Part shown: piece after piece, positions 3,686-63,933 of the stretch
Numbering within the stretch: position 1 is the stretch's first letter
Layout of the letters: each line of letters starts with the position of its first letter
The notes under the pieces: model-generated
Database searches by the model: none
What the model saw: the letters and a program-made list of their open reading frames with translations, nothing else
Told to the model about the DNA's origin: nothing
Assembly (NCBI GenBank): GCA_026391805.1
Contig: JAPLDJ010000024.1
Coordinates: 15,020 to 79,019, forward strand
DNA length: 64,000 nt
Source of the DNA: Bacteroidota bacterium
Lineage (GTDB): Bacteria > Bacteroidota > Bacteroidia > Bacteroidales > FEN-979
Direction: 5' to 3'
Program-made: the position numbers and the translations under genes

Positions 3686-3793
3686 TTTCACGCAGAGAAC
3701 GCAAAGAAAAACGCAAAGGACGCAGAATGTAATTTCATATTAACGATTTCTTTGCGGTCTTTGCGACATACCATTGCGGCCTTTGCGTGAAAT
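3686..3793. repeat. long imperfect hairpin element, GCAAAG family (copy 1)
   Basis: The left arm is TTTCACGCAGAGAACGCAAAGAAAAACGCAAAGGACGCAGA. The right arm is TCTTTGCGGTCTTTGCGACATACCATTGCGGCCTTTGCGTGAAAT, an inverted complement around an AT-rich loop. Same architecture as 47781-47887 and 61818-61924. Confidence 0.7.
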
Positions 3794-46973: not shown

Positions 46974-47240
46974 TTAATTGGAAGGTTCGAGCGGAGTAAC
47001 AGAAACAAAAGAACGGTGTTTCTGCTCTTTTCTAAATTCAACGATCCCGTCGATCAGTGCAAACAGCGTATGGTCCTTGCCAATCCCGACATTCAGTCCG
47101 GGATTGTGAACGGTACCGCGCTGGCGCACGATGATACTTCCCGATTTGGCAAATTGCCCGCCATAGATCTTAACGCCCAAGCGTTTGCTGTGTGATTCAC
47201 GTCCGTTACTGGAACTACCAGCACCTTTTTTGTGTGCCAT
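46974..47240 (-). CDS. rpmA: 50S ribosomal protein L27
   Basis: [24 protein letters not shown]..., 88 aa. Confidence 0.95.
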
Positions 47241-47295
47241 ATCAATTCAGATTTTTTCTTAATAATCAATTTAACTGAAGCCCGTAGTCAGGAAA

Positions 47296-47664
47296 TTATT
47301 CTGCGGCTGGTGCTTCTTCTTCTTTCTTTGCCTTTTTCTCTTTTGCTGCGCCCTTGTGGGAGATCGCTTCGATCAGGATCTTGCTGAAGTCCTGGCGATG
47401 GCCGCTCTCCTTCTGGAATCCCTTTCTCCTTTTCTTCTTGAAAACTATCACTTTATCTCCCCTGGCATGCTCCAGTACCTTACCGGTAACCTTGGTTCCT
47501 TCCACATGGGGCGTACCAATGGTGATCTTTCCGTTGTTGTCGACCAGCAACACTTCATTGAATTCCACCGGGGTTCCAGGTTCGGCCTCCAGACGATGCA
47601 CAAAGATCTCATCATTCTTCTGAACCTTAAACTGCTGGCCGGCTATTTCGACGATTGCGTACAT
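47296..47664 (-). CDS. rplU: 50S ribosomal protein L21 (with K/E/A-rich C-terminal tail)
   Basis: MYAIVEIAGQQFKV... core, plus the tail KGAAKEKKAKKEEEAPAAE. A TACATTTG box (plus-strand CAAATGTA, 47702-47709) lies 37 nt upstream. Confidence 0.95.
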   Translation of the reverse strand: MYAIVEIAGQQFKVQKNDEIFVHRLEAEPGTPVEFNEVLLVDNNGKITIGTPHVEGTKVTGKVLEHARGDKVIVFKKKRRKGFQKESGHRQDFSKILIEAISHKGAAKEKKAKKEEEAPAAE

Positions 47665-47780
47665 TTTATATTGTATTGAGTTTCTTCAAATTTTGGGAGT
47701 GCAAATGTAGAAATTATTTTTGATTTACAAACGATTTCGTTGTAAAAAACTCATGATATGGTCTCCGGGCTATTAAAAAA

Positions 47781-47887
47781 TTTCACGCAAAGGCCGCAAA
47801 GACCTGCCGCAAAGACCGCAAAGAGTTTATTGGGAAGATATTATATTTTGCGCCCTTTGCGCAATCCTTAGCGTTCTTTGCGTGAAA
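47781..47887. repeat. long hairpin element, GCAAAG family (copy 2)
   Basis: TTTCACGCAAAGGCCGCAAAGACCTGCCGCAAAGACCGCAAAGAG, loop, then TTTTGCGCCCTTTGCGCAATCCTTAGCGTTCTTTGCGTGAAA. The flank CTATCTTTTGAAAC resembles the flank of copy 3. Confidence 0.7.
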
Positions 47888-47935
47888 CTATCTTTTGAAA
47901 CCGCTCTTTTTCAGACAACTTTATGCGTTTTTCTG

Positions 47936-47943
47936 TATCTTTG
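47936..47943 (+). promoter_or_regulatory. candidate -7 box (TATCTTTG) for T9SS cargo gene A
   Basis: Exact match 50 nt upstream of ATG 47994. It lies inside the track's TTG-started extension, which supports 47994 as the start. Confidence 0.4.
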
Positions 47944-47993
47944 TAAGAGCGACTACGTATAAGAGTCTACATAGGTTTACCTATTGTAATGCC

Positions 47994-50900
47994 ATGAACA
48001 ATACCTCAACCAGGCTGCTTGTTTATAAGGAGTTACTGGTTTCTGTATTTTTTCTTTTGGTGACGGGATGTTTCGGACAAACTACCGCCACCCTGAATGG
48101 TATTGTAACAAACAGCCTCACCGGATTGCCTGTGATCGGAGCCACCATAACCGTGGGGACGCACAGCACCGGTTCCGTTTCAGGGGGAATCTATTCTCTG
48201 ACCATCGACCCTGCCGGGACCTATCCGGTAGCTTGTACCAAGGCCGGTTATGAAAATTTCCTTTCCGTCCCGATGACATTTGCTCCCGGTTCATCCAGCA
48301 CGCTTCCCATCGCCCTTTCCGAAAGTCTGAATCCGCCCGCCCTCGTTTCCGCTGTGCTCGATTCAGCGGCCTCTCCTCCGGCGGTGAACATTACCTGGCA
48401 GGTCCCGAGGGGGCCTTACGAGATCCTTTACGATGACGGGATCATGGACAATTTTACCGTATGGGCGGTCCAGGGAAACATGAATGCAGTGAAGTTCACA
48501 CCGGCCGGTTATCCTGCAATGGTCACAGGCGGCAGGGTCAACATCGGAACGGCGGCAAACTATCCGCCCGGCAGTATTGCCTTTGTTCCGTTCCAGGTCT
48601 CGGTTTACGATGCAACAGGTCCGGGCGGTACACCCGGAACAAAGATCGGGGGACCGGTCGATGTGATCCCTGCCGATTTCGGGTGGATCGATTTTACATT
48701 TTCTTCCCCGACCCAGATCAACGGCGGGAGCTTTTACCTGGTGATGATCCAGGGAGGCAATGCCCCGAATGCCACCGGGCTGGCCATCGATGAAACCAAC
48801 CCGCAGTTCAGGAGCTATTCGCGTTTTGTCACCTCCGGGAATTATCCATGGATTCCTGCTTCCGGGAACTTCCTCATGCGCGCGCTCGTAAACGGCCCCG
48901 GCGGTCCCATGATGATGACGGATGCCCCTGCAGGTATTACAGTATACACTGTCTCCAGGCTCAGGCAGGGCGAAGAGCAAAACCCGGCGATCTGGACCCT
49001 CCTTGGCGCTGTCGCCTCCACAAACCTGGCCGATAATAACTGGATCGCTCTTCCCTGCGGACCTTACCGCTGGGCCGTGAGGGCCAACTATACCGGCAAC
49101 CGCACCTCTCCCGATTCCTTTTCGAATGTGATCGGAAAATGCTGGATTGTCAATACCACCGTACATGTTACCCTGAGCTGCGATTCAGCACCGAAGACCG
49201 GGATCACCGTACGGCTCAGCAACCTTGTTTATCCCGATACCCTCTATGAAAAACCGGCGGATACAACCGGAACGGCCTGCTTCACGCATTTCTGGAAAGG
49301 ATCCTACCAGCTCAAGGTCAGCCGGTTCGGGTACCAGGATTTTATTCAGAACGTCAGCATCAGCACCGATAGCACCCTTACGGTATTTCTCCTCCAGACC
49401 AAGACTGCACCTTCCGCCATGATGGTCAACGACAGCAATCTCATCGCTCACTGGAATAAACCGGTCAGCTCCGTTGAACTGTTCCGTGAAACCTGGCAGA
49501 GCGGCAGTTTTACGACCAACGACTGGACCGTTCAGGGACCTAACTGGGGAGTCTCTTCGGCCATCGGGAAACCGATGCCTTCAGCCATGTTTAGCTGGTC
49601 GCCACCCGCCACAAATTATGAGCAATCCATCGTAAGCAAACCGATCACGGGCCGGTCTTCTCCCATCCTCAGGCTGCATTATGATGTTTTCCTGGATAAT
49701 TATGGTACCACCTCGCTGAACCAGCTTGCCGTAGAACTTTGGGACGGGGCCACCTGGCACCTTCTGAGGAATTATAACAATCAGCTTGGCAGCATCCCCT
49801 GGACATCCCAGGACCTCGACATTTCGGCATACAGCAGCACTACCTTCAGGATCCGTTTCCGGGCCTATGGCGTGGATTCCTATGATATCAATAACTGGAA
49901 TATCGATAACATCGTGGTTACAGGCACCGAATCGTCTGCCATTGCCGGTGACTGTATCCTGGGTTACAATGTATTCCTCGACAACATCCTGCTCGGTTTT
50001 ACGCCTGATACCATCTATCCGGTCCCGCCTTCCATGGTTCAGTATGGAAATTCATACACCGCCTGTGTTGCAGCTATCTATGGCAGCGGTTCTTCAGGAC
50101 AGAATTGCTATACATTTATGTCGCGGTATCTTGTTCCGCCCGGAAACCTGCATGGCACCGCGATTGATGACGTTGCCTTCCTTACCTGGGATCAGCCGTC
50201 ACGTATGATGGAATCCCATTCCTCTCCAAATACTGCAGCACCCGGGCTTTCAGGTTATATTCTATACCGCGACGGCGCTTTTCTTGATTCAGTGAAAAAT
50301 GCAGATACCACTTTTTATTATGACCTTGGCCTCTATCCCGGATCCTATTCCTACAAAGTGACCTCCCTGTACGATCTGGCATCTTACGGTTACCCGGGTC
50401 AGTTTGCGCAATCCTATCCGGCCGGACCAGTTACAGTGGACATTAATTATGGACTTCACCTTCCTTTTTCTGAACCCTGGGACCAGGGCAATTTTGCTTA
50501 CCACAGCTGGAGCTTTGCTCCGGATACCGGAAACTGGTCGGTCAACCTTAACCTGGGAAATCCTGCCCCGGGCGCCCAGTTTTCATGGGAACCGCCGAGG
50601 ACAAACTATTCCTATTCGCTCGTAAGCCCTATTCTGAATGCCTCCAGCCTTGAATGTTCGAACATCTGGCTGAATTTTGACTACCGCCTGCTGGATCATA
50701 ATCCAACGGGTAATGAAAAGCTATCAGCTGAACTCTTCTATAACAACGACTGGCATCCTGTTTCAGAGTTTTCCAACCAGGGTAATACGGGATGGATTCA
50801 GCAGCACATCGATATCACACCGGTGAAGGGCAAGGCATTCCGGGTCCGGTTCCGGGCTTACGGGAACAACACCGAAGACCTCATCAACTGGAGTGTTGAC

Positions 50901-51980
50901 AATATTGATGTTTATGGCATATGCAGGCCGCCTCAACACCTGGTGGCGGATACTTCCGGCTATAACAATGTCCGCCTGACCTGGTCTTCTCCTGTCTGTG
51001 AAGACGGATACCCCCTGAACGAAGGGTTTGAAGAAGCTGACTTTCCTCCGCCGGGCTGGGCACAGACAGTTACCAATAGTAATGATGTAACCTGGAAACA
51101 TGTCACGAGCGCCATCCCGCAGGGTGTTCATTCGGGCGCCTATGCGGCCGGACTCACCTGGGACTACGTCCACCAGGATGAATGGCTGATCGCAAAAAAC
51201 ATTGAGATCACCGGCGACCTGACCTTCTGGAGTTATGCATTCCAGGGTTCAGTGCATCTTGACCATTATTATGTCAAGCTCTCCGAAGACCAGGGAAACC
51301 ACTGGCAGATCCTTTTGGATATGTCTGCACTTCCGGCTTATCCTTCCGTGTCGGGATACAATGAATGGGCTACTCCTTATTCGATCGACCTTTCATCACA
51401 CGTCGGCCAGGTGGCAGATCTCGCATGGCAGGCCGTGGATGGAGACGGACAGGGCTTGTGGTACGCATGGATCATCGACGACTGTTCAGTTGCTTCAAAG
51501 AAGATCATGCCTGTGAAATACACAGCGCCTCCATCCGCCTATAACATCTACCGCCAGGATGCAGGCAATGGCAGCTTCAACCTGATCAACAGCACACCCG
51601 TTCAGGATACCACATACCTTGATCAGGGATTGCCGTCGACCATCTATCGCTATTATGTCACATCCTATAATCAGGATTGTTCAGTTTCAACACCCTCCGA
51701 TACTGCCCTTATCAATGTCGTGGCAGGAATTTCATCTATAAATCCCGGGACCCTGAAGGTGTTTCCAAACCCGGCCTCTTCCATAATGACCATTCAATCC
51801 TCAAAGGAAATTCTCTCTGTAAAATTGTTCAATTATGCAGGACAGGAAGAATTACGGCTGACCGGAACCGGACAATATCAGGAAATCATTCGTGTTGCAG
51901 ATTTTCCTTCAGGGATCTATATCATCAGGGTGACTACCCGTACAGGTGTGAGTTCTGTGAAAGTTGCCGTTGCGCACTGA
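47994..51980 (+). CDS. large T9SS-sorted surface protein (CarboxypepD_reg-like + jelly-roll/MAM- or cleaved-adhesin-like modules + Por C-terminal domain), paralog A
   Basis: Signal peptide LLVSVFFLLVTGCFGQ. A TLNGIVTN...GIYSL carboxypeptidase-regulatory-like domain. Two modules ending F(R/K)(I/V)RFRAYG....(I/L)NW..DNI.V.G. One EGFEE..FPPPGW module (choice-of-anchor-J/cleaved-adhesin-like). C-terminal LKVFPNPASS...GIYIIRVTT...VKVAVAH sorting domain. Confidence 0.8.
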   Translation: MNNTSTRLLVYKELLVSVFFLLVTGCFGQTTATLNGIVTNSLTGLPVIGATITVGTHSTGSVSGGIYSLTIDPAGTYPVACTKAGYENFLSVPMTFAPGSSSTLPIALSESLNPPALVSAVLDSAASPPAVNITWQVPRGPYEILYDDGIMDNFTVWAVQGNMNAVKFTPAGYPAMVTGGRVNIGTAANYPPGSIAFVPFQVSVYDATGPGGTPGTKIGGPVDVIPADFGWIDFTFSSPTQINGGSFYLVMIQGGNAPNATGLAIDETNPQFRSYSRFVTSGNYPWIPASGNFLMRALVNGPGGPMMMTDAPAGITVYTVSRLRQGEEQNPAIWTLLGAVASTNLADNNWIALPCGPYRWAVRANYTGNRTSPDSFSNVIGKCWIVNTTVHVTLSCDSAPKTGITVRLSNLVYPDTLYEKPADTTGTACFTHFWKGSYQLKVSRFGYQDFIQNVSISTDSTLTVFLLQTKTAPSAMMVNDSNLIAHWNKPVSSVELFRETWQSGSFTTNDWTVQGPNWGVSSAIGKPMPSAMFSWSPPATNYEQSIVSKPITGRSSPILRLHYDVFLDNYGTTSLNQLAVELWDGATWHLLRNYNNQLGSIPWTSQDLDISAYSSTTFRIRFRAYGVDSYDINNWNIDNIVVTGTESSAIAGDCILGYNVFLDNILLGFTPDTIYPVPPSMVQYGNSYTACVAAIYGSGSSGQNCYTFMSRYLVPPGNLHGTAIDDVAFLTWDQPSRMMESHSSPNTAAPGLSGYILYRDGAFLDSVKNADTTFYYDLGLYPGSYSYKVTSLYDLASYGYPGQFAQSYPAGPVTVDINYGLHLPFSEPWDQGNFAYHSWSFAPDTGNWSVNLNLGNPAPGAQFSWEPPRTNYSYSLVSPILNASSLECSNIWLNFDYRLLDHNPTGNEKLSAELFYNNDWHPVSEFSNQGNTGWIQQHIDITPVKGKAFRVRFRAYGNNTEDLINWSVDNIDVYGICRPPQHLVADTSGYNNVRLTWSSPVCEDGYPLNEGFEEADFPPPGWAQTVTNSNDVTWKHVTSAIPQGVHSGAYAAGLTWDYVHQDEWLIAKNIEITGDLTFWSYAFQGSVHLDHYYVKLSEDQGNHWQILLDMSALPAYPSVSGYNEWATPYSIDLSSHVGQVADLAWQAVDGDGQGLWYAWIIDDCSVASKKIMPVKYTAPPSAYNIYRQDAGNGSFNLINSTPVQDTTYLDQGLPSTIYRYYVTSYNQDCSVSTPSDTALINVVAGISSINPGTLKVFPNPASSIMTIQSSKEILSVKLFNYAGQEELRLTGTGQYQEIIRVADFPSGIYIIRVTTRTGVSSVKVAVAH

Positions 51981-52023
51981 GATTTTCTCTTGCCTGATCT
52001 TTTCATTATTTCTGTTTTATGAT

Positions 52024-52031
52024 TATATTTG
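52024..52031 (+). promoter_or_regulatory. candidate -7 box (TATATTTG) upstream of truncated paralog B'
   Basis: Exact match 123 nt upstream of ATG 52155. The spacing is similar to the box upstream of paralog B. Confidence 0.35.
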
Positions 52032-52154
52032 ATGGATCAATTTTTAACCAGGATAAGTTTTGGTGAAAAATCACCTTATTTAATATACCTCAATTAATCA
52101 TATTATCAGGTCCTCTATATATTCATTCCTGAACGATCAAAACTTTCTGACCTT

Positions 52155-53828
52155 ATGAAAAAGTGTATCCGGCACTTATCTGGATTGATGATGATCCTGT
52201 CAATCCTGGTATTTGCATTTCAGCTAAGGGCTCAAACCACCCTGCTGACCGAGGGCTGGAATACAGCATCGGGCACAACTCCGCCGGCTGGCTGGGCGAT
52301 CGGCCAGCTTGGCTATGGAAGCTGGACATCATTTGTCACTTCCGGCAGCTTCCCTGTTTGTACTCCATACGAAGGGTCGGGGATGGTAAACTTTGATTCC
52401 TGGAACGCTGCAGCAGGCTATGAGAACAGGTTGTATATGATGACGTCTGTCTCGACAATTGGTTTTACCAATATAAAGGTTGACTTTGCTTTGCTGAAAC
52501 AGACTGTCTACAGTGGTGACGGCGTATACGTTGAATGGTCCGTCAATGGTACGACATGGACAACGGCAGGTGCCCTGTTCAATACCAACGGAACCGTTCA
52601 GCAGTGGCAGGTGCAAACCCAGGCGCTGCCGGTCGGCGCGGCCAACCAGGCAACCCTCTACGTCGCCCTCCGTTTTCATTCCAACTGGGGATACGATGTT
52701 TATACCGATCTTTTGCATATTACAGGATTGCAGACCGGCAATCTTACAGGTACGGTCAGGAACTGTTTCAACAATGGAACATTGGCCGGTGTTACAGTGT
52801 CCTGCGGTGGCCTGAATGCAACGACAAATCCCAGTGGTATTTACACTTTGAACGGCATAACCGCCGGGCCACAGATCATTACAGCCAGTCTGGCAGGATT
52901 CCTGCCCCATTCTGAACCGGTAATGGTAATCGCAAATACAACCACAACCCATAACCTCTGCCTCGACCCGATCCCGGGTTACATTGCAGGTGTTGTGACC
53001 AGCTGTGAAACAGGCAGTCCTATAATTGGTGCACGTGTCAGTTTTTCAACTTTCTTTACTTATACAACGGGTGCCAACCCTGCAGCAGGCACCCCGGCGG
53101 GTTATTACAAGATCACAGTGTATCCGGGAATGACCAGTACATTGCAATGTACAAAACCCGGGTTCACAGTCTATTCATCACCTCCCATCACAGCTTCTCC
53201 GCCGGTAACGGTAACATTTAATTTCTGTATGCATGAAAATGTACCGGCTCCGGGTGGCCCGTTTTCGGCAACAGTAAACGCAAATCAGACTTCAGTTACC
53301 CTCAATTGGGGCCTCCCTGTTGATGATATGGTACTGCTGTTTGACGACGGTATCCAGGATAACTTTGCAATTTGGGCAACCGGTGGCGGAAACAACCTGA
53401 ACGCCGTACGGTTCACACCGATCAGCTATCCTTGCATCATCAAGGGTTTCTATGTGAACATCGGTCAATCAACCAACTACACGGCCAGCCAGAACGCATT
53501 CACCCTTACACAAATGGCCATCTTCAGTGATATAGGCGGATTGCCTGGTGTACAGCTTTCGGCTCCTACAACGGTAACACCGGCTATTTACGGATGGACT
53601 AAGGCCAACTTTGATGCTCCTGTAACGATCAGCAACGGAAATTTCTTCATCGCGATGATCCAGCTGGGAAACTCAGCAGCATCACCGGGAATTGCCATTG
53701 ATACGACGGTACAGCAGCTGAGGAGCTTCTCGAAGTTCGGTTCCACGCCGTGGATCCCGGGCCCGGGAAACTACATGATCCGCGCCATTGTGAACGGGTC
53801 GGGCGGTCCGCTGATGCTTGGGAAGTAA
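52155..53828 (+). CDS. truncated paralog B' of the T9SS cargo gene (N-terminal 557 aa only, no sorting domain)
   Basis: About 65-70% identical by eye to residues 1-560 of the gene at 55993. Signal peptide present. It stops at ...GSGGPLMLGK. Nucleotide similarity to paralog B continues past the stop, to about 53905. Confidence 0.6.
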   Translation: MKKCIRHLSGLMMILSILVFAFQLRAQTTLLTEGWNTASGTTPPAGWAIGQLGYGSWTSFVTSGSFPVCTPYEGSGMVNFDSWNAAAGYENRLYMMTSVSTIGFTNIKVDFALLKQTVYSGDGVYVEWSVNGTTWTTAGALFNTNGTVQQWQVQTQALPVGAANQATLYVALRFHSNWGYDVYTDLLHITGLQTGNLTGTVRNCFNNGTLAGVTVSCGGLNATTNPSGIYTLNGITAGPQIITASLAGFLPHSEPVMVIANTTTTHNLCLDPIPGYIAGVVTSCETGSPIIGARVSFSTFFTYTTGANPAAGTPAGYYKITVYPGMTSTLQCTKPGFTVYSSPPITASPPVTVTFNFCMHENVPAPGGPFSATVNANQTSVTLNWGLPVDDMVLLFDDGIQDNFAIWATGGGNNLNAVRFTPISYPCIIKGFYVNIGQSTNYTASQNAFTLTQMAIFSDIGGLPGVQLSAPTTVTPAIYGWTKANFDAPVTISNGNFFIAMIQLGNSAASPGIAIDTTVQQLRSFSKFGSTPWIPGPGNYMIRAIVNGSGGPLMLGK

Positions 53829-53928
53829 GACAGGGCCAGAGATCACAGTCTCAGCTGCGTCTGTATTCACACGACGACCGGTCTCAGTACTACGAAGATC
53901 ACTATAATGTATTGATGATTGGAGGGAA

Positions 53929-55521
53929 TTACAACTGAAGCAGGAACCCGATCAGCTGGTCATCCGATTCCATGTTCAGCTTCTTCCGGAGCCTGTAACG
54001 TGCAACATTCACCGAATTGTGCTGCTGCAGCGTGATCTTGGCGATGTCCTTGCTGCTCAGGTTCATACTGATCATCGCAGCCAGTTTCATTTCATTTGAG
54101 GTCAGCCCCGGGCATTTGTCATTCAGGTTTTTGAAGAAATTGGGATGTACATCCACAAATTTTGCCTTGAAGCTGTCCCAGGTATCCTTGGTGGTCAGTT
54201 TTTCGATGGCCTCGATGGTCTGGTAAATTTCTCCGTTCAGTGAAGATGTTTTTGGCGACCGCGAAGCAATGTCCCTGAAATTGGCAGAGATCTCGGCAAG
54301 TTTTTCATTCGTCTTGATCATGTAAGTGGTCGCCATCAGGAGGTCATGATTTTTCCGCTCCAGTTCGGCCGTCACCTGCGAAACTTCATTCCCTGCAGCC
54401 TCCAGCGCCTGTTTATGCGTACTGATCAATTCATCTTTATGGGTTTTATGCTGGTCAATGGAAGTGACCAGTTTTCCTTTGATCTGCTTCTCATGCCGGA
54501 TGATCTCGTTCTTGAACCGGAGGTTTTTACGCTGCTGGCGGACAAGGAGGCTCAGCAATACAATCAGCAGCAGCGCAAAAACAGCGGCGGAGATGTAAAA
54601 TTTCTGTGCCAGCCGGAAATTGCGGTTCTGCTGCCGGATCAGCTCCGTCCCGGTTTGCTGGCTTACGGCATTGTAACTTTCGGTCAGCCTCAGCATGGCA
54701 TTCCTGTTTTTCAGCGATTGCATGCTGTCATTCAGTTTGTAATAGGCCTCCAGGTTTTGAAAAGCCTGGTCCTGCTTGTTGAGCAGTTTATAGCTCTTGT
54801 AAAGGATCTGGTGAAAACGCATCAACAAGACGGGATCATCGGTTTTTGCAGCGATTGCCAGGCCCTGTTGCGCAAATTCAATGGATTTCTTGCAATCCTG
54901 GGTTTCAAGATAGAGTTCACTTTTCCCGGTTAGGATCACAAGGATGATGTCGTGACGGTTGTTCTTTGTGGCGAGCGTCATGGCTGAATCATAATACATC
55001 TGGGCGAGCTGGGCCTTCGGTTCGGAACGAAACAGTTCGCCGGCAAAATAATATGCATTCATCAGGTTCCCGGAATTGTTTTTTGTAATCCTGAAATACC
55101 GTATCGCGGAGGAAAGGCTGAGCCAGGCGGAATCATACTTCTTCATTTCCCGTAACACCCTGCTGATGGAAAAGGCCTGCTCATACATGGCATCCGGCAG
55201 GTCCATGCGCAGGTAGGTTTCCTGCGATTTCCGGTAGTAATCGAGGGCTTTTGAATACTCCTTCAGGGTGAAATGGATGTTACCAATGCTGTTCAGATCT
55301 TCTGCCTTTGCTGCAAGATCGTTCAGCTTTTCATCCTCCATCAGCGCCTTAAAATACTGGGCCAGGGATTTTTTGTAGGGATTGTTGTCGGCCTTGCCCG
55401 CTTCCGGCCAGCTCCTGGCCAGCAAAGGAAGGAGAAAACAAGCTGCCAGCAAAAAAATCTTGAGGCCGGCAGCTTGTTTTGAAAATGATTTCAACAGGTT
55501 GAGAGATGGCAGGTATACCAT
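53929..55521 (-). CDS. transmembrane one-component regulator: periplasmic TPR-like sensor + TM + coiled coil + LuxR/GerE-type HTH
   Basis: Signal or anchor segment LKIFLLAACFLLPLLA, TPR-like helices, central TM YISAAVFALLLIVLLSLLV, and a C-terminal LTSNEMKLAAMISMNLSSKDIAKITLQQHNSVNVARYRLRKKL HTH. The track start at 55536 is TTG. ATG 55521 sits 20 nt after a TATTTTTG box. Confidence 0.75.
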   Translation of the reverse strand: MVYLPSLNLLKSFSKQAAGLKIFLLAACFLLPLLARSWPEAGKADNNPYKKSLAQYFKALMEDEKLNDLAAKAEDLNSIGNIHFTLKEYSKALDYYRKSQETYLRMDLPDAMYEQAFSISRVLREMKKYDSAWLSLSSAIRYFRITKNNSGNLMNAYYFAGELFRSEPKAQLAQMYYDSAMTLATKNNRHDIILVILTGKSELYLETQDCKKSIEFAQQGLAIAAKTDDPVLLMRFHQILYKSYKLLNKQDQAFQNLEAYYKLNDSMQSLKNRNAMLRLTESYNAVSQQTGTELIRQQNRNFRLAQKFYISAAVFALLLIVLLSLLVRQQRKNLRFKNEIIRHEKQIKGKLVTSIDQHKTHKDELISTHKQALEAAGNEVSQVTAELERKNHDLLMATTYMIKTNEKLAEISANFRDIASRSPKTSSLNGEIYQTIEAIEKLTTKDTWDSFKAKFVDVHPNFFKNLNDKCPGLTSNEMKLAAMISMNLSSKDIAKITLQQHNSVNVARYRLRKKLNMESDDQLIGFLLQL

Positions 55522-55541
55522 AAAATAGTACGTCAATCCGG

Positions 55542-55549
55542 CAAAAATA
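55542..55549 (-). promoter_or_regulatory. candidate -7 box (TATTTTTG) for the LuxR-type regulator
   Basis: The plus strand reads CAAAAATA 20 nt upstream of ATG 55521. Confidence 0.4.
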
Positions 55550-55878
55550 TTTACTCCGGCCGGTTATATTTGAATTAATAGATAATCTGTGGATTTAAAC
55601 CGATAAAGAGGCATATCCTCACGACAAATGAAAACTGAGAACAAAGGGTTTTATTATATGGAAGGATAAATAATATCAATAATGTCAGAATATCTTGCCG
55701 GATAATGGAAAATTTTTATGGGAATTTTCTGATAAAATCGTTAAAGCAGTTGAAAACCAGTAAATAGAAGCCTGATTTCAGCTTTATGGCGCTTTTTCTG
55801 TATATCAGATGTAATGATTTAAATTCATACGTACAGCGTTTGTAATTCAAATTAATTTTTTTCTGTTAAATAGGGGAA

Positions 55879-55886
55879 TACTTTTG
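55879..55886 (+). promoter_or_regulatory. candidate -7 box (TACTTTTG) for T9SS cargo paralog B
   Basis: Exact match 106 nt upstream of ATG 55993. Confidence 0.35.
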
Positions 55887-55992
55887 TGTGGATAAAATTT
55901 TTACCGAAGAAACACACCATTATATACTCAATTAATCATGTTAATTGATCCTTTATATTTTTTCTATCTATTCATTTAAACCAATAAACCTT

Positions 55993-58900
55993 ATGAGAAA
56001 CGTTACAAAGTATTTATCAATGTTGATGGTTATCCTGTCGATATTGGTATTTGCATCTCAGACCAAGGCTCAAACCACTTTGATGACTCAAAACTGGAAT
56101 ACCGCCTCGGGAACAACTCCGCCTGCTGGCTGGGCAATCGACCAGCTGGGTTATGGAAGCTGGACATCGTTCATTACTTCCGGGGGCTACCCGACCTGTA
56201 CTCCTTATGAAGGGTCAACCATGGTAGGGTTCAACTCTTGGAATGCTTCAACTGGTTACCAGAACAGGCTGTACATGACCACGCCTATCAACACATTAGG
56301 CTACACCAACATCACGGTCGATTTTGCAGAGTTTATGCAGACCGTGTTCACTCCGGGAGACGGTCCTTACGTGGAATGGTCAACCAATGGTACGGTCTGG
56401 ACCGTGGCTGGCGGCTTAGTGTATAACTACGCTGCTGTTCAGGGATGGCAGATCAAATCACAGGTATTGCCCGCAGGCGCAGCCTCGGCCACCCTGTACA
56501 TTGCCTTGCGCTTTTACTCCAACTATGGGTATGACGTTTACACCGACCTGTACCACATTACCGGACTTCAAACCGGTAACCTCACGGGAACCGTCAGGAA
56601 CTGTTACAACAACGCCCTTATCGTTGGCGCACAGGTGACCTGCGGCGGTATAACAGGGGTGACCAATGCTGCCGGTGTTTACACACTGAATGCCATCAAT
56701 ACCGGTTCACAGATCATTACCGCAACCATGGCAGGATTCCTGCAGTACAATGCTCCTGTTACGGTCATCGGCAACACCACCACAACGGTTAACTTCTGCA
56801 TGAACCCGATCCCGGGCATTCTGTCCGGTGTTGTGACCAATGCAGCAACTGGTAACCCGGTTATCGGGGCTTATGTCACCTTCGGTGGAGCTGGCACCTA
56901 TTCTACAGGTGCGAACATCCCGGCAGGTACACCGGCCGGGTATTATAAGCTCAGTGTCTATCCCGGCGCAACCGGCACGGTGCAGTGCACCAAACCAGGA
57001 TGGGCGAACTTTTCACAGGCCGGTATTACGGTAACCCCTCCGGCAACCACCCCCCAGAACATCGCTCTGAACGAAAATGCTGCTCCTGCTTCAACACCGT
57101 TTACGGCTGTATTGAATGCAGGCCAGACTTCGGTAGCACTGAACTGGGGCATGCCAAAAGACGACATGGTACTTTTATATGACGACGGCATCCAGGATAA
57201 CTTTGTGATCTGGGCTACCGGTGGCGGAAGTAACATGAACGCCATGAGGTTCACCCCGATCAGCTATCCTTGCGTTGTCAAGGGGTTCTATGTGAACATC
57301 GGCCAGGCCACCAACTACACGGCCGGCCAGAATGCGTTCAGTCCCGTTCAGATGGCCATCTACAGTGAAGTAGGCGGATTACCCGGTGCACAGCTTTCAG
57401 CTCCCACCACGGTAACTCCTGCAGCTTACGGATGGACCAAGGCCAACTTTGATGCTGCTGTAACGATCCCGAGCGGTAATTTCTTTATTGTCATGATCCA
57501 GCTTGGAAGCTCTGTAGCATCCCCCGGACTTGGTGTCGACACCACAGTTCAGCAGCTGAGAAGTTACTCGAAGGTCGGTTCCACTCCATGGATCCCGGGC
57601 CCGGGCAACTACATGCTCCGCGCCGTTGTGAACGGATCGGGCGGCCCGCTGATGCTGGGTGGCACCACAGGAGGGGAGATCACGGCCTCTGCCGTTCCCG
57701 GGTTGACCTACCAGTATTCGGACCGGGGTCTTTGCTTGGCTACCAGGTATGGATTTTGAACCAGACACAGCAGGGAACACCTGCCAGCTGGACTTCGGTA
57801 ACCTTCACCACGGCAACCAATGCAGCATACAACGGATGGGCAAGTCTCACCCCGTGCGGCGGCTACCAGTTTGCAGTCGAAGCACAGTACACGTTCAACC
57901 GCTGGTCAATTCCGATCTTCTCGAACGCCCTTGGCAAATGCTGGACCTGCTCTGTGACGGTCAACGCCAAACTGAGCTGTGATACAGCAAGCAAGGCCGG
58001 ATCGACCATCAAGTTTGAGAACCAGGATCCTTATGTAACGGATACCGTTTATACATGGACAACCGATGCCACCGGCTCACATACCTTCACCAATTTCTGG
58101 AAAGGCAATTACAAGCTGACCATCACCCATTACGGATACACCCCATGGGTACAGACGCCGATCGCCATTATGGGCGACATGACGCTGGACATTACCCTGC
58201 TCCAGATCAAGGCACCGCCGACGGGACTTTATGTTTATGATACCGATGCATTTGCAACCTGGTATCCGCCCGTATTGTCGACCACGATCTTCAACGATGG
58301 GTTCACCACCGGTTTTGGTACAAACGGATGGGTACCTGATGCAGGAAGCCATTGGGCTATTTCTGCAGGCAACGGTAACCCGGGCCAGTGCGCCGAGTGG
58401 AACTATGCACCTGTGGTAACCGCTTACAGCCAGTCGCTGACGAGCAAGACCCTTTACGGGGTTAACTCTCCGATCATGAAGCTGCAGTATGACATCCACC
58501 TGGACAACTACGGTACAACCACGCTGAACCAGATGGCCGTTGAAGTATGGGACGGCGCTACATGGCACTCTGTTGGAAACTATGACAACAGTTCCGGCGC
58601 CAACATCCCATGGACAACAGTAACCACAAACATCACCCCGTATGCTCCGGCAACCGGTTTCAAGGTACGCTTCAGGGCTTACGGCGATAACAGCAATGAT
58701 ATCGACTGGTGGGATGTTGACAATGTCAAGCTCCTTGCCCAGACAAATCCTCACGATCCGTGTATCATCGGTTACAACTTCTACCTGAACAACATCCTTG
58801 ACGGATTTACCAAGGATACGTTCTACAACATCCCGAAGACACACTTTAAGTACAACACCTATTATTGTGCAGACGTACTTGCAATTTACGGAAGCGGTTA

Positions 58901-61718
58901 TTCAACCACCTCGCACTATTGCTGTACCTCTCACTTCCTCTATCCGCCGACCAACGTTCAGGCTTTGGCTATAGAAGATGCTGTATACATCAGCTGGAAC
59001 AAGCCGGTGGTCACCGATGCTGCTATGAACAGCTCGGTAAGAATGCCTGCTACAGGAACCGGACCTGCTGAAGATCGCGTTGCAGCAACAGACAAGCCTG
59101 CTAAAACGTCCTTTGTTCCCGGAACAGGTACAGTTACACCTGACGCACCGGCCGCTTTGGTTTATACCAACGGTACATGTATCAACAGCCCGGGAACGGG
59201 TGCAGGCGGCGCTGATGAAAGCGTTCTGCAAACTTCTCTCGGTATGGGTACATATGGTGTTAACGCAAGCCAGAGCCTCGGCTACACCGTGGCAGACGAC
59301 TTTGTCGTTCCTGCTGGCGGCGGCTGGGATGTTAACCAGATGGTATTCTATACCTACCAGAGCAATGCCCCGACGGGAACCAACCCGATCACCGGTTGTT
59401 ACTTCCGTATTTACAACGGAGCACCGAACGGTAGCGGTACTGTGATCTGGGGTGACCTTACCACCAACAGAATGACCACAGGCGCATGGGGAAATATCTA
59501 TCGTTGCCTTGATGATGGTCTCCACAGTACAGCACGTGCTGTGTTCAAGATCACCTGTAACATCACAAGCCAGCATTTTGCACCCGGTACCTACTGGATC
59601 GAATGGCAGTTTGCAGGTTCAGCATCCTATTCAGGACCGTGGGCACCTGCGGTTGCTATCTGGGGTAATACCACAACGGGTAATTCTCTGCAGTGGCAAG
59701 TTACTTTATGGGCAGCTATCACGGATGTTGGCCCGCAGGGTCAGCCATTTGATTTATATGGCGGCAGCGGCGGTGGTGGTACACCGGCCGGGCTCGTCGC
59801 ATACAGGGTGAAACGCAACCACGTTATCATCCACACGGTACCCGATCCGGATTCACTGTACTACTATGACCTTCACCTCAACCCGGGCCGCTACTGCTAT
59901 GACGTAGATGCCAAGTACAACCTTACCTCCTATGGATTACCCGGCCAGTTTGGCTATTCAAGAAATGCACCGAACGGACCCGCATGCGTAGATGTTGCAT
60001 ACGGATACCCGCTGCCGTTCTTCGAACCATGGGATATGGCAACCTTCACATTCCAGAAATGGACATTCATGAACGGGACTGCAACTACTCCCACATCGAC
60101 CAACTGGCTGATGAACACTGCCTTCGGGGATCCGACACCATGTGCCGACTTCTCATGGCAGCCGATGCAGTCGCCGCTCTATAATCTTTCACTGGTCAGC
60201 CCGACGATCAATGCATCGGCATGGACCTGTGCAGATATCTGGGCCGACTTTGACCTCAAGCTGGCTGACCGCAATGCAACCGGGGACGAAATACTCGATT
60301 TCGATGTTTACGTCAACGGAAACTGGATCAACAAGGCTGAATTCAAGAACGAAGGTTCCTTCGACTGGACGCTGAAGCACATCGACATCAGCACTGTAAA
60401 GGGCAAGGCATTCAAGGTTCGTTTCCGTGCAAACGGAGTGAACTCAGCCGACATCCTGCACTGGTATGTTGATAACATCCATCTCTATGGGTTATGCAAG
60501 GCACCGACCACACTGGCTGGACATCAGAACCAGTTCACCACCACGCTTACCTGGGTTGCCCCGGTTTGCGGACATGGCGGACCTCCTCCTCAGTGGATCT
60601 TCTGGGATCAGCAGACCAACTTCACGAGCATCGGTTACAATGCTGCATATGACTTCCAGATTGCAGCACGCTGGAATCCTGCTCAGCTTGCACCGCTGGA
60701 TGGTGGCGCAGTGACGAAGGTTAAGTTCTGGCCGGCCAGCGCAGGCGCTGCAACATGGCGGGTACGTATCTGGGAAGGCGCAACCGGTACAAGCATGGTT
60801 GTTGACCAGGCCGTTACGGCTCCCATTGTGAACGACCAGTTTAACGAAGTTACACTGTTAGTTCCTCACCCGATTGACATTTCACAGGATATGTATGTTG
60901 GTATGGACGTGAACGCTTCCGGCGGCTGGCCCGCAGGTTGCGATGCAGGTCCTGCCATCGTAGGATTCGGTGACCTGTTCAACGACGGAACCGGCTGGGT
61001 TAATATGAGCCAGCCGCCCAACAGTTTGAACTACAACTGGAACCTTGCTGCTTATATTGAACCGGCAAAGAAGGGAGCACTGACATCGCCAGTTATCCTG
61101 ACTCAGACCCCGGTAAACAATCCGAAGGGATTGAACATGAGCACAAGCGGAAGGATCAACACCAATACGACGACCAACGTGAACACCTCAGGCAGCGGCA
61201 GGATCACGCCGAACATGCCAACAGGATCACAGCTGCTGGGATACAATGTATACCGTACCCCGGATAACGCTACGAGCCCGTTCACCATTATAAACTCGCC
61301 CATTGTTGGCGGATTGACCTACCAGGATGTACACCCGAGCAACACTGAACCGACCACAACGTGGAAATATTATGTCACGGCTGTGTTCCAGGATTCACTG
61401 GCACCGGGCCCGATCCTTTGCGAACCTCCTTCAGATACAATCACGATCACCTTCCCGGCCGTTGGTATCAACGACCTGACGAATGGTACACTGAACCTGT
61501 ATCCGAATCCTGCTAACGATGTTGTGAACGTAGTTTCATCAAACAACATCAAGACGATTGAAGTTCTCAACTATGTAGGCCAGACGATCTATACTAACAA
61601 TAACCTGGATCAGAAGACCGTACAGCTGAACGTTATCAACTTCAGGGCAGGTGTGTACTTTGTGAAGGTTACCACCACCATCGGTATCAAGATCACAAAG
61701 ATCACAGTGACGCACTAA
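55993..61718 (+). pseudogene. very large T9SS-sorted surface protein, paralog B, split by a single frameshift (or assembly indel)
   Basis: Frame 1 runs 55993-57759 (signal peptide MRNVTKYLSMLMVILSILVFASQTKAQ...). Frame 3 is open at least from 57588 and runs to 61718. Homology to paralogs switches from frame 1 (..GSGGPLMLG, about 57660) to frame 3 (LLGYQVWILNQ.., 57732). The end is a Por sorting domain (LNLYPNPANDVVNV...GVYFVKVTT...KITVTH). Joined, it would be about 1,900 aa. Confidence 0.65.
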
Positions 61719-61740
61719 TCCTTCATTGGAACTGTAAAAA

Positions 61741-61770
61741 GGTCGGCCGTTTGGCCGGCCTTTTTTTTTG
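61741..61770 (+). terminator. rho-independent terminator of paralog B
   Basis: AGGTCGGCC GTTT GGCCGGCCT (9-bp stem, one G-U) followed by a T-tract through 61770. It is preceded by AAAAA, so it could work in both directions. Confidence 0.8.
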
Positions 61771-61817
61771 GACTACCTTTGCCGGCAATCACCAGGCTTT
61801 CTCAAAACCTAAGTATG

Positions 61818-61924
61818 TTTCACGCAAAGTCCGCAATGAATTGCCGCAAAGACCGCAAAGAAAAGATGAATACGAAATTAAACTCTGCGTCCTTTGCATT
61901 TTTCTTCGTGTTCTTTGCGTGAAA
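61818..61924. repeat. long hairpin element, GCAAAG family (copy 3)
   Basis: TTTCACGCAAAGTCCGCAATGAATTGCCGCAAAGACCGCAAAGAAAAG, loop, then CTCTGCGTCCTTTGCATTTTTCTTCGTGTTCTTTGCGTGAAA. Confidence 0.7.
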
Positions 61925-61980
61925 TTATCTTTTGAGACAGCTTCGTGATTCACTGTTTTCTAAAAATATGAGTCTCTAGA

Positions 61981-63933
61981 ATGGTATCGGTCAATAATCT
62001 TTCGGTTCAGTTCAGCGGAACTCCGCTGTTCGATCATGTTTCCTTCATTATCAATGACAAGGACAGGATCGGGCTTACCGGGAAAAACGGAGCCGGGAAA
62101 ACGACATTGCTGAAGATCATCAAAGGCTTGCAGAAGGCCGATGAAGGGGAAGTAGTGATACCGTCGGGCAGTACCATCGGGTACCTTGCGCAGGAGATGG
62201 AGACCAAAAGTGAGAAGACCGTGGTGGAAGAAGCCATGACTGCGTTCTCCGAGATCCTGGAACTAAAGCAAAAGATCGGATCGTATGAAGAAGCGATAAA
62301 ATCGAGAACGGATTACGATTCTGAAAGTTACCACAGCCTGATTCATAAGCATTCCGATGCCTATGAACGATTCAACCTGCTGGAAGGGAATTCCATTCAT
62401 ACCAATACGGAAAAGGTGCTGACCGGCCTCGGGTTTGAGATCCCGGAATTTTCGCGTCCCATGAGCCAGTTCAGCAGCGGCTGGCAGATGCGGGTGGAGC
62501 TGGCCAAGATCCTGCTGCGCGTGCCGGATGTCATCCTGCTCGACGAGCCTACGAATCATTTGGATATTGAGTCGATCCAGTGGCTCGAGGAATTCCTGAT
62601 CAACTACAAAGGAGCTGTTGTCCTGGTATCGCACGACAGGGCTTTCCTGGATAATGTGACAAAACGAACCATCGAGATTTCACTGGGGAAGATTTACGAT
62701 TACCGCGCCAACTATTCCGGTTACGTGACCCTGCGGGAAGAACGCCTCGACAGCCAGATCGCGACCTACAATAACCAGCAGCGGCAGATCCGGCAGATCG
62801 AACGGTTCGTCGAACGGTTCCGCTACAAATCCACCAAGGCGGCGCAGGTGCAGTCGAGGATTAAAATGCTGGAGAAGATTGAAGAAGTGGAACTGGATGT
62901 TTTTGACGAATCGGGCATCAAGTTCCGTTTTCCCAAGGCCCCGCATTCCGGAAAGATCATTCTTGATGCAAAACACCTGACCAAGGATTACCCGCAAAAA
63001 AGGGTGCTCAATGATCTTCATTTTTCGGTGATCAAAAATGACAAGATCGCATTTGTGGGGAAGAACGGCGAAGGGAAAACCACCCTTTCAAAGGTCATCG
63101 TAAAACAGACATCCCACACCGGTGAACTGAAATACGGGCACAACGTGGTGCTGGGCTACTATGCCCAGGACCAGTCGGATTTCCTCGATCCTGATAAAAC
63201 GGTCTTCCAGACCATCGATGACATCGCTACCGGCGACATCCGTCCGAAAATCAGGACGATCCTGGGCGGCTTTCTGTTCGGCGGTGAGTCGATCGATAAG
63301 AAGGTGAAGGTCCTTTCAGGCGGAGAAAAATCAAGGCTCTCGCTGGCAAAGCTTCTGCTGACGCCGTCGAACCTCCTCATCCTGGATGAACCGACCAACC
63401 ACCTTGACATGCGTTCGAAAGACATCCTGAAAAATGCCCTTTTCCAGTACGATGGTACGCTGATCATTGTTTCCCACGACCGCGACTTTCTGACGGGTCT
63501 GACCAACCGTGTTTTTGAATTCCGTCATGGCGGGATCAAGGAATACCTGGGCGATATCTACGATTTCCTTGAGGCAAGGAAACTCAGTGAATTATCACAA
63601 CTGGAAGCAGCGGCGAAAGCCGCCGGCAATGAGCCTGTAAAGAAAAACTCTGCCCAAAAAGTAAGCTGGGAAAAGCGGAAAGATTTCGACAAGGAATTAC
63701 GGAAGATCCAGAGCCAGATCTCAAAATCGGAAAATGAGATCGGACGGCTTGAAGCGGAAATCAAAACAACCGAGGGAATGCTGATCCAGCCGGAGAAATT
63801 CAAGGACAAGGTTTTGGGACCGCAGCTATACAAGGAATATGAGCGGCTGAAAGAACTGCTGGAGAAAGAGATGAAGCGATGGGAAGAGCTGCAGCTTGAA
63901 CAGGAAGTACTGGAGAAGAAAAAACCGGATTAA
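61981..63933 (+). CDS. ABC-F family ATPase (two NBDs, no TMD; Uup/EttA-like translation factor class)
   Basis: Walker A GKNGAGKTT and GKNGEGKTT. Signatures FSSGWQMR and LSGGEKSR. Walker B ILLDEPTNHLD and LILDEPTNHLD. Charged coiled-coil C-terminus. Confidence 0.9.
   Translation: MVSVNNLSVQFSGTPLFDHVSFIINDKDRIGLTGKNGAGKTTLLKIIKGLQKADEGEVVIPSGSTIGYLAQEMETKSEKTVVEEAMTAFSEILELKQKIGSYEEAIKSRTDYDSESYHSLIHKHSDAYERFNLLEGNSIHTNTEKVLTGLGFEIPEFSRPMSQFSSGWQMRVELAKILLRVPDVILLDEPTNHLDIESIQWLEEFLINYKGAVVLVSHDRAFLDNVTKRTIEISLGKIYDYRANYSGYVTLREERLDSQIATYNNQQRQIRQIERFVERFRYKSTKAAQVQSRIKMLEKIEEVELDVFDESGIKFRFPKAPHSGKIILDAKHLTKDYPQKRVLNDLHFSVIKNDKIAFVGKNGEGKTTLSKVIVKQTSHTGELKYGHNVVLGYYAQDQSDFLDPDKTVFQTIDDIATGDIRPKIRTILGGFLFGGESIDKKVKVLSGGEKSRLSLAKLLLTPSNLLILDEPTNHLDMRSKDILKNALFQYDGTLIIVSHDRDFLTGLTNRVFEFRHGGIKEYLGDIYDFLEARKLSELSQLEAAAKAAGNEPVKKNSAQKVSWEKRKDFDKELRKIQSQISKSENEIGRLEAEIKTTEGMLIQPEKFKDKVLGPQLYKEYERLKELLEKEMKRWEELQLEQEVLEKKKPD

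Follow-up and report, generated by a model that had tools for sequence, protein, structure and literature searches.

Regulators of the ToxR/CadC/TcpP type are single polypeptides that cross the inner membrane, sense on the outside and bind DNA on the inside with no phosphotransfer, and their targets usually lie nearby. ToxR and CadC carry an N-terminal winged-helix domain in the cytoplasm and a C-terminal sensor in the periplasm. In the Bacteroidetes, SusR has its sensor facing the periplasm and its DNA-binding domain in the cytoplasm, and the operators predicted for SusR-like regulators are two separated sites upstream of the target promoters (PMC3878776). BT_3442 is a multidomain protein with tetratricopeptide repeats (TPRs) that heads a cluster of exported proteins (PMC2954219), the MACPF/lipoprotein cluster BT_3442-BT_3433 of B. 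thetaiotaomicron. Outside a few model species, little is known of how individual type IX secretion system (T9SS) cargo genes are regulated. Here we analyze a 64,000-nt window (the whole stretch of DNA under study) of a 438-kb contig from a metagenome-assembled genome (MAG) of an uncultured 'Bacteroidetes bacterium'. Between positions 47994 and 61718 the window holds three genes of a T9SS cargo family, which we call A, B' and B, together with the gene for a predicted membrane-bound regulator, and the locus offers a testable pair of regulator and candidate operator.

A scan for open reading frames (ORFs) placed A at 47994-51980, B' at 52155-53828 and B at 55993-61718 on the plus strand, and the regulator at 53929-55521 on the minus strand. 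The scan reproduced the coordinates and gene order of a first-pass annotation of the window, including its statement that the regulator is the sole minus-strand gene of the block and sits between B' and B. In the public deposit, B' is named NTU98_12810, the regulator NTU98_12815 and the 5' ORF of B NTU98_12820. We give a slightly better than even chance to the following account as a whole: A and B are an ancient cargo pair, a regulator that would activate B was inserted between them, B-type genes carry a leader hairpin, B' arose by duplication, and B has suffered a deletion. The parts are of known kinds (T9SS type A adhesin-like cargo and a Bacteroidetes membrane one-component regulator), and no current view is overturned. 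What is new here is modest: a conserved cargo pair at a fixed site, a rare cassette of regulator plus candidate operator that appears to have been gained and lost there, an old paralog without a sorting tail that is under selection, and a leader hairpin specific to the cargo. The genome comes from an uncultured organism. Gene anatomy, synteny, selection and co-occurrence are what the sequences show, whereas ligand, activation and regulon are inferred.

The A/B pair is widespread and deeply conserved. A scan for A loci, with one genome per species, returned 77 loci, all from Bacteroidales, Prolixibacteraceae or Draconibacterium-type MAGs. Most have serS-rpmA-rplU divergently upstream of A, a B-type gene after A and an ABC-F gene after B; some 50 Bacteroidales MAGs, none of which has the regulator, share the syntenic order serS-rpmA-rplU | A -> B -> ABC-F. 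In the window, the upstream flank carries on the minus strand the genes for L21, L27, seryl-tRNA synthetase, an outer-membrane beta-barrel protein and an IF-2B-like protein, and the downstream flank carries the ABC-F ATPase gene. Full-length homologs of A number more than 290. In the 120 listed, which measure 1297-1376 aa, identity to A is 47-69% over at least 97% of the length, and the family holds to a size of about 1,325 aa. Pairwise ratios of nonsynonymous to synonymous substitution rates (dN/dS) lay at 0.08-0.10 in A and 0.10 in the regulator, with 0.15-0.23 in B and B'; dS values above 1 are near saturation, which makes the ratios approximate. A and B are thus an ancient tandem paralog pair, held at a fixed chromosomal site across a Bacteroidales/Prolixibacteraceae clade under purifying selection. 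Compared among relatives, the locus shows deep conservation and no fast-evolving island. The two proteins of the pair, encoded beside rplU-rpmA, measure ~1,300 and ~1,900 aa.

The regulator, judged by its distribution, appears to be a rare accessory insertion at this site. About 10 orthologs (52-63% identity) were found among 5.8 × 10^9 proteins, and all of those with genomic context lie between A and B, with 20-25 nt separating them from the convergent A gene and ~500 nt from the divergent B gene. None of the 77 representative loci carries the regulator, including the closest ones (67-70% identity in A), and a metagenome scan for further regulator loci gave one usable extra contig. In a neighbor-joining tree of A, drawn without support values, regulator bearers and nonbearers are interspersed within one sub-clade; the sequences suggest a history of one gain and several losses.

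The evidence that ties the regulator to a target lies in the noncoding DNA. Bacteroidetes-type -7 boxes of the form TAnnTTTG precede A (47936..47943, plus strand, TATCTTTG, 51 nt before the ATG and at the same distance in A orthologs) and B (55879..55886, plus strand, TACTTTTG, 107 nt before the ATG and kept in B orthologs with and without the regulator). The regulator has its own -7 box at 55542..55549 on the minus strand (TATTTTTG; TAATTTTG in orthologous loci). A candidate box for B' (52024..52031, plus strand, TATATTTG, 124 nt before the ATG) occurs in this genome only and has no conservation support. One such box per cargo gene, as first annotated, is therefore present (at 47936, 52024 and 55879, with leaders of 51, 124 and 107 nt). 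The window as a whole is not enriched in TAnnTTTG, with 37 matches against 32 +/- 5 in shuffles, and it is position and conservation alone that give the boxes their meaning.

When the regulator-B intergenic regions of four lineages were aligned, little was conserved except both -7 boxes, the B leader and two noncoding blocks. Block 1 (55799..55817) reads TGTATATCAGATGTAATGA in the window and TGTATATCAnATGTAATGA in the alignment; block 2 (55831..55846) reads GTACAGCGTTTGTAAT and GTACAGYGTTTGTAAT, respectively, and ends ~33 nt upstream of the B -7 box. Each is a candidate regulator-binding site. Together they span ~35-80 nt upstream of that box; relative to the regulator they lie 250-300 nt upstream of its start. 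The TGTA motifs within them are ~10 and 31 nt apart, a spacing that would put them on one face of the helix. By pattern search the blocks occur in 8/8 loci that bear the regulator, with no further match in the 1.3 Mb of related loci or in the rest of the window. In the form TGTATATCAnnTGTAAT plus GTACAGYGTTTGTAA they occur in five regulator-bearing lineages (52-61% regulator identity, saturated dS) and are absent from ~80 regulator-less loci; at the contig end of the fifth lineage (L094), block 1 is present together with the beginning of block 2. Regulator-less relatives keep the same B -7 box and leader and have unrelated sequence in place of the blocks. Neither A nor B' has the blocks, so the candidate operator is at B only.

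On these alignments no other sequence is as good an operator candidate as the two blocks, and B is the only gene to which they point. Because the presence of the regulator coincides perfectly with blocks just upstream of the B promoter, the regulator probably controls B, and probably not A or B'. The proposal that it governs its flanking genes is therefore plausible for B, given that the regulator always lies between A and B and that the blocks occur only with it, and does not extend to A and B', which lack the blocks. Sister genomes that have the same B promoter without the regulator and blocks provide natural controls.

The regulator protein is built in a way that would suit this role. It is 530 aa long, or 535 aa from an upstream TTG at 55536, and comprises a signal/anchor helix (aa ~21-36), five TPR pairs (aa 48-246; nt 54784-55380), a transmembrane helix (aa ~308-328; nt 54538-54600), a coiled coil and a LuxR/GerE-type helix-turn-helix (HTH) domain (aa ~470-529; nt 53935-54114). 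The conserved -7 box (55549-55542) ends just 6 nt before the annotated TTG start at 55536, a position that favors ATG 55521 as the more plausible start. Hydropathy marks two hydrophobic segments, aa 26-41 and 313-333 of the 535-aa form, with the TPRs between them and the HTH after. An AlphaFold 2 (AF2) model, with a mean predicted local distance difference test score (pLDDT) of 82, has five TPR pairs at pLDDT >90, a long helix containing the transmembrane segment, a coiled coil and a C-terminal four-helix bundle. Its TPR part resembles the peptide-binding TPRs of LGN, KLC and Rap. A profile of the last 105 residues searched against the PDB gave significant matches (E <=0.05) that were almost all LuxR/NarL/FixJ HTHs, DosR being the best (E = 1.4e-4). 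The Pfam GerE model matches the regulator at E = 6e-4 and 19.8 bits, under the 23.5 cut-off; the orthologs score 16-20 bits and one distant homolog 28 bits. The weight of the sequence and model evidence thus favors a LuxR/GerE-type HTH at the C terminus, although the curated cut-off is not reached. The topology first proposed for this protein, an exported TPR domain, a transmembrane helix and a cytoplasmic LuxR-type HTH, is matched by hydropathy, the AF2 model and the profile search.

Among described systems, the SusR-like regulators (SusR, BT3705) are alike in being Bacteroidetes-specific one-component membrane regulators with a periplasmic sensor, a transmembrane helix and a C-terminal cytoplasmic DNA-binding domain, and hydropathy and the AF2 model both give the window regulator this topology. 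SusR-like genes also lie beside their targets, and the window regulator likewise has two blocks ~30 nt apart upstream of a divergent gene. The two differ in their DNA-binding domains, which is recognizably of LuxR/GerE type here and is described as unlike known families in SusR, and in their neighbors, which here are T9SS cargo genes rather than susC/susD or glycoside hydrolase genes. The Pfam models SusR_C and TPR_SusR found no match in the regulator or its orthologs at E up to 5, and SusR Pfam models have weak or faint precomputed matches on a 24%-identical homolog only. No susC or susD gene occurs in the orthologous loci, where the neighbors are T9SS cargo, ribosomal-protein and ABC-F genes. 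With the LuxR/GerE (NarL/FixJ) family the regulator shares its last ~60 residues, which align over the whole four-helix HTH with DosR/DevR, EsrB, VraR, NarL, FixJ and GerE; unlike that family, it has no receiver or autoinducer domain, and its HTH is tethered to the membrane through the transmembrane helix and coiled coil. The likeness to ToxR/CadC/TcpP is one of analogy only: the one-component membrane logic is the same, but the polarity is opposite and the DNA-binding fold different. Homology to the BT3442 family (NF053779) is weak but runs from end to end (query 53-525 to model 117-550 of 563; E = 4e-15), at 55.4 bits against a membership cut-off of 940.

We propose that the regulator, together with the two blocks, was inserted between A and B in one sub-clade. 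Its TPR domain would bind an envelope ligand, which we infer to be probably a peptide or protein, and a membrane-tethered HTH dimer would then bind the two blocks and activate the divergent B promoter. A and B', which lack the blocks, would stand outside its direct control. Several observations weigh against this account. The blocks and the regulator gene are physically linked, and their co-occurrence could reflect co-inheritance or co-deletion of one segment. The blocks could also serve autoregulation of the regulator, or another factor. The regulator has apparently been lost in at least three sub-lineages that kept A and B, which would make it dispensable, and its GerE match falls short of the Pfam threshold.

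Taken to their end, these points describe a regulator that is a passenger, inserted by chance and controlling distant genes or itself, with blocks that are autoregulatory or belong to some other factor. We consider this rather unlikely. It is true that ~50 genomes without the regulator keep the A->B tandem together with its promoters and the B leader, that the regulator seems to have been lost repeatedly, and that the position of the blocks, 250-300 nt upstream of the regulator start, makes autoregulation geometrically possible. All known orthologs, however, occupy this one site across five lineages, and the blocks abut the B core promoter at a distance typical of activators. Distant homologs of the regulator (22-25% identity) bear on the same question. 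In three contexts sampled, two were divergent from T9SS or choice-of-anchor J neighbors (L092/L093, 273-6118; L091, 1-8833): one from the gene for a 1254-aa protein with three choice-of-anchor J domains, and the other from a cluster with a T9SS sorting-domain gene, where two such regulators stand in tandem. The third, whose neighbors are unrelated and include no secreted protein, sides with the passenger.

B-type genes carry a further conserved element, which does not depend on the regulator. About 70 nt before every B-type start the leader reads CC(A/T)TATAT-ATCAAT-(loop)-ATTGAT-(A/C)CC(T/A)TATAT and then TTATTAAC(C/T)AAA; in the window this is a hairpin at 55927..55949 on the plus strand, CTCAATTAA-TCATG-TTAATTGAT, with conserved flanks CCATTATATA and CCTTTATAT. 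We found 47 instances (loci L001-L090), on the coding strand and only before B-type genes, with or without the regulator. RNAalifold returned no structure from a MAFFT alignment of the leaders, in which two length classes of the hairpin were misaligned; its place was taken by an alignment anchored by hand and a subset of equal length. In the 31 equal-length sequences, pairing holds in 217/217 cells; pair 7 is AU in 16, UA in 14 and GC in 1, and pairs 1 and 2 have G.U and G-C variants. The covariation score was reached by 0/500 shuffles. Loops are 4-7 nt long, and GNRA tetraloops close 8/18 distinct cores with a six-nt spacer, where ~0.6 would be expected by an estimate that takes GNRA as 1 in 32 under equal base use. 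Covariation and GNRA loops favor a hairpin in the 5' untranslated region (UTR) of the RNA over a protein-binding DNA palindrome, as far as sequences can tell. On the other side, four of the seven pairs never vary, the helix, at -3 to -7 kcal/mol, is weak, and the element may still be a palindrome in DNA that a dimeric protein uses. As an operator for the regulator the palindrome was rejected, since it is present in ~40 genomes without that gene. The Rfam 15 covariance models gave no match in 47000-62500 at E <=1 except a chance Thr_leader at the B terminator, and the locus thus defines a cargo-specific leader hairpin that has no Rfam family. It may act as a second layer of control on B-type genes, independent of the regulator and probably post-transcriptional.

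A bolder reading would make the TPR-transmembrane-LuxR proteins an uncharacterized Bacteroidota one-component family dedicated to T9SS cargo genes, and the hairpin a new cis-regulatory RNA. The TPR domain would then sense the state of the envelope or of secretion, for example unsecreted cargo or the tail-less B', and feed back on the cargo promoter, while the GNRA-capped 5' UTR hairpin would be a second cis-regulatory element, specific to the B-type cargo family. We regard this combination as unlikely on balance.

The second paralog, B', descends from B itself. Self-BLAST identified 52083..53855 (plus strand) as a copy of 55922-57692 at 70.7% nucleotide identity; the segment takes in 72 nt of the B leader and the first third of B and ends in the linker after a 190-aa domain. 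Past 53855 no significant similarity between B and B' was found. B' (52155..53828, plus strand) encodes 557 aa, in order a signal peptide, a MAM/cleaved-adhesin-like jelly roll, two CarboxypepD_reg domains and the 190-aa YDDGI domain, directly after which the protein ends; no sorting domain was detected in it at E up to 0.01. Because B' is closer to the N-terminal part of B (69% protein identity) than to the L001 ortholog (60%), the copy arose within this lineage, and none of the orthologous regulator-bearing loci has it. The duplication is nevertheless old. Between B' and B, dS is 1.33 and dN/dS 0.16, there are no stops and only single-codon indels, and the 557-codon ORF has stayed open despite ~30% nucleotide divergence; by these measures B' reads as an old duplicate kept by purifying selection rather than a decaying remnant. 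Since it has a signal peptide and no sorting tail, the protein probably stays in the periplasm. Its copy of the hairpin (52090-52112) has a degenerate 3' arm and so appears lost, as does the candidate operator.

AF2 models B' with confidence in its N-terminal jelly roll and first CarboxypepD_reg (pLDDT ~90) and poorly in the 190-aa YDDGI domain (pLDDT 25-70). The well-modeled regions are similar to MAM-Ig, to reelin repeats, to CnaB pilin domains and to the cleaved-adhesin domain K1 of Kgp; the jelly roll superposes on this last (4itc) with a TM-score of 0.60 and also on MAM-Ig modules, a likeness at the level of fold only. A small, GC-poor hairpin, GGTGAAAAATCACC followed by TTATTT, lies at 52062-52075, downstream of the candidate B' -7 box and ahead of the B' start, and could be a weak terminator of A or an attenuator in the B' leader. 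In another locus (L088, 4417-6117; ENA contig_102294) a separate 566-aa B-type gene is truncated at the B' linker (...NYMIRAWVNG|) and abuts a convergent signal-peptidase gene; to judge by its sequence, this may be either a recurrent truncation point or a chimeric contig.

B itself is interrupted in the window. It is split over ORFs 55993-57759 and 57588-61718, with the change of frame between ...GLTYQYS and GSLLGYQVW.... At the junction (57717..57718, plus strand) 58 nt are missing relative to four orthologous B genes; the loss takes out the linker ...APATVTGVEGSPKVYPE... and puts the reading frame off by -1. The four orthologs read through the linker as ...YQYAPATVTGVEGSPKVYPE...LLGYQVW, and the window is short by exactly 58 nt. 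As the 1,330 codons 3' of the junction are still open and conserved (dN/dS 0.22 against L001), this out-of-frame deletion is recent, is limited to a strain or stems from faulty assembly. With its signal peptide in the frame of the 5' ORF and its sorting domain in that of the 3' ORF, B as sequenced is not predicted to yield a full-length T9SS-sorted protein; the two would share one polypeptide only if the real allele kept the 58 nt. A programmed -1 frameshift was rejected, as inspection by eye found no X XXY YYZ slippery site in 57700-57735 and the shift coincides with the deletion; a homopolymer error at the G4 run was likewise rejected, given the 58 nt missing relative to the orthologs. That B' contains the junction, so that the frameshift predates the duplication, was rejected too, the tail alignment past 53855 being no better than shuffles (1493/2000). 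The end of the B' duplication (57692) and the start of the deletion (57717) are only ~25 nt apart, in the same inter-domain linker. A B-type gene elsewhere (L089, 4392-9617) is split into ORFs of 649 and 1045 aa at another position, inside a CarboxypepD_reg-like domain, and B genes are often broken in assemblies.

Since the source is a MAG, strain variation or faulty assembly could lie behind the deletion, and even behind the arrangement with B', which counts against our account of both. In its strongest form this explanation takes B' and the split in B as assembly or binning artefacts, the true genome reading A - regulator - intact B as in L001, and we find it quite improbable. Fragmented B genes in other assemblies are in keeping with it, as are the metagenomic contigs of many relatives that stop inside B (L001, L002, L005, L012, L018-L020 and others), which suggest that assemblies regularly break at B because of repeats or strain variation there. 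But B' and B, at 70.7% DNA identity, are too diverged to be an assembly duplicate or collapse, and B' has its own open frame, a signal peptide and a codon-level signature of selection. The 438-kb contig has normal flanking synteny, and homopolymer errors do not typically take out 58 nt, though the deletion may be a strain variant.

Very improbable is the view of the first-pass annotation, a self-contained and fast-diversifying surface-antigen module with all its paralogs under the embedded regulator: B-type copy number does vary among relatives (extra copies in seven loci), truncated or split B genes occur elsewhere (L088, L089) and B is frameshifted here, but the diversifying or relaxed selection it supposed is contradicted by dN/dS of 0.08-0.23 for A, B and B' and by the constancy of A, which in over 100 of the homologs listed measures 1316-1350 aa at 47-69% identity. 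The locus is also in deep synteny with genes for ribosomal proteins and a tRNA synthetase, and a regulator at the core of the module does not fit an A->B tandem kept in ~50 genomes without it after apparently repeated loss, nor a candidate operator that is absent from most members and from A and B'.

A (47994..51980, plus strand; ORF scan and hidden Markov models [HMMs]) encodes 1328 aa, against 1327 aa in its orthologs. In order it has a signal peptide, a CarboxypepD_reg domain, the 190-aa YDDGI domain, an FN3-like domain, a CarboxypepD_reg/PEGA-like domain, two jelly-roll modules, a choice-of-anchor J domain (aa 1008-1166), a second FN3-like domain and a T9SS type A sorting domain (aa 1256-1325). 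The 5' ORF of B (55993..57759, plus strand; 588 aa) has the architecture of B' and reaches its stop through the frameshift. The 3' part (57726..61718, plus strand, -1 frame, its ORF open from 57588) has no signal peptide of its own. Its A-like body includes two jelly-roll modules and a ~260-aa inserted domain, and its T9SS type A sorting domain lies at nt 61497-61718. A and B are collinear paralogs with 38-44% identity in the main aligned blocks: A 26-308 aligns with B' 269-555 (38%, E = 2e-55), and A 318-735, 751-1007 and 1182-1328 align with the 3' part of B at 44%, 44% and 35%. By these collinear alignments, B is an A-like body with an N-terminal jelly roll and CarboxypepD_reg added, the ~260-aa insert, and another domain in the place of A's choice-of-anchor J.

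Export of A and B by the T9SS, as predicted earlier, is supported by sorting-domain HMMs above cut-off: TIGR04183 scores 40.7 bits in A and 33.7 in the B 3' ORF (cut-off 23), and PF18962 scores 37.4 and 45.5 bits (cut-off 27). In A, hydropathy and HMMs place the Sec signal peptide and sorting domain on one polypeptide. CarboxypepD_reg (PF13620) was found, as expected, in all three cargo genes (A, 50.5 bits; B', 61.4; B 5' ORF, 59.0; gathering cut-off 32.3), with two copies each in B' and the B 5' ORF and nothing more there above threshold in the HMM scan. The ~190-aa YDDGIxDNF...FTP domain said to be common to A, B' and B is borne out by the A/B' alignment. Choice-of-anchor J (NF038128) was detected at 74.2 bits in A (cut-off 30), and neither B nor B' matched it at E up to 0.01. 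The Pfam MAM and Cleaved_Adhesin families, also named for these proteins, gave no match at E <=0.01 with whole proteins or E <=1 with excised modules, which had only sub-threshold Pfam matches, to Reelin_subrepeat-B and F5_F8_type_C. As originally written, the jelly-roll motif was off by 1-2 residues in its spacing; loosened to FRxRFRA(Y/N)G...W..DN(I/V), it matches twice in A, twice in B and not in B'. Jelly-roll modules of this kind and Por tails, attributed to all three genes, therefore stand for A and B and, by HMM and motif search, fall for B'. The adhesin-like build of A and B from beta-sandwich modules agrees with the HMMs and structural comparison. About two thirds of A and of B, including the 190-aa YDDGI domain, match no Pfam family at threshold, and sequence searches of solved structures with A and both parts of B found no relative.

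With T9SS type A adhesins of the gingipain/HagA kind, A and B share the signal peptide and the C-terminal TIGR04183/PF18962 domain, and A, like the choice-of-anchor J proteins among such cargo, carries that domain; unlike gingipain/HagA-type cargo, they have no catalytic domain and no sequence-level match to Cleaved_Adhesin or MAM. They are also unlike variable adhesins, in that their position beside rplU-rpmA and their length are highly conserved, which is unusual. A is single, and B-type copy number varies: two to three tandem full B-type genes are present in L009, L017, L021, L030, L039, L044 and L058, with B-type matches at ~14-15 kb and ~21-22 kb and a leader hairpin before each copy. B ends at an intrinsic terminator (61741..61769, plus strand), GGTCGGCCGTTTGGCCGGCC followed by T9.

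The block is flanked by copies of a 105-nt element. The left copy (47782..47886), between rplU and the A promoter, ends in 11-nt terminal inverted repeats, TTCACGCAAAG...CTTTGCGTGAA, with CGCAAAG repeated inside; the right copy (61819..61923) is 77.6% identical to it. A third copy lies at 3687-3791, and the element carries tandem CGCAAAG/CTTTGCG motifs. None was found in 90 related loci, and the element appears specific to this genome. We considered the repeats as att-like borders of a mobile island and rejected this, given the third copy at 3687, the ancestral synteny of the flanks and the lack of copies in related loci; by sequence they look like dispersed elements of the miniature inverted-repeat transposable or repetitive extragenic palindromic (MITE/REP) kind.

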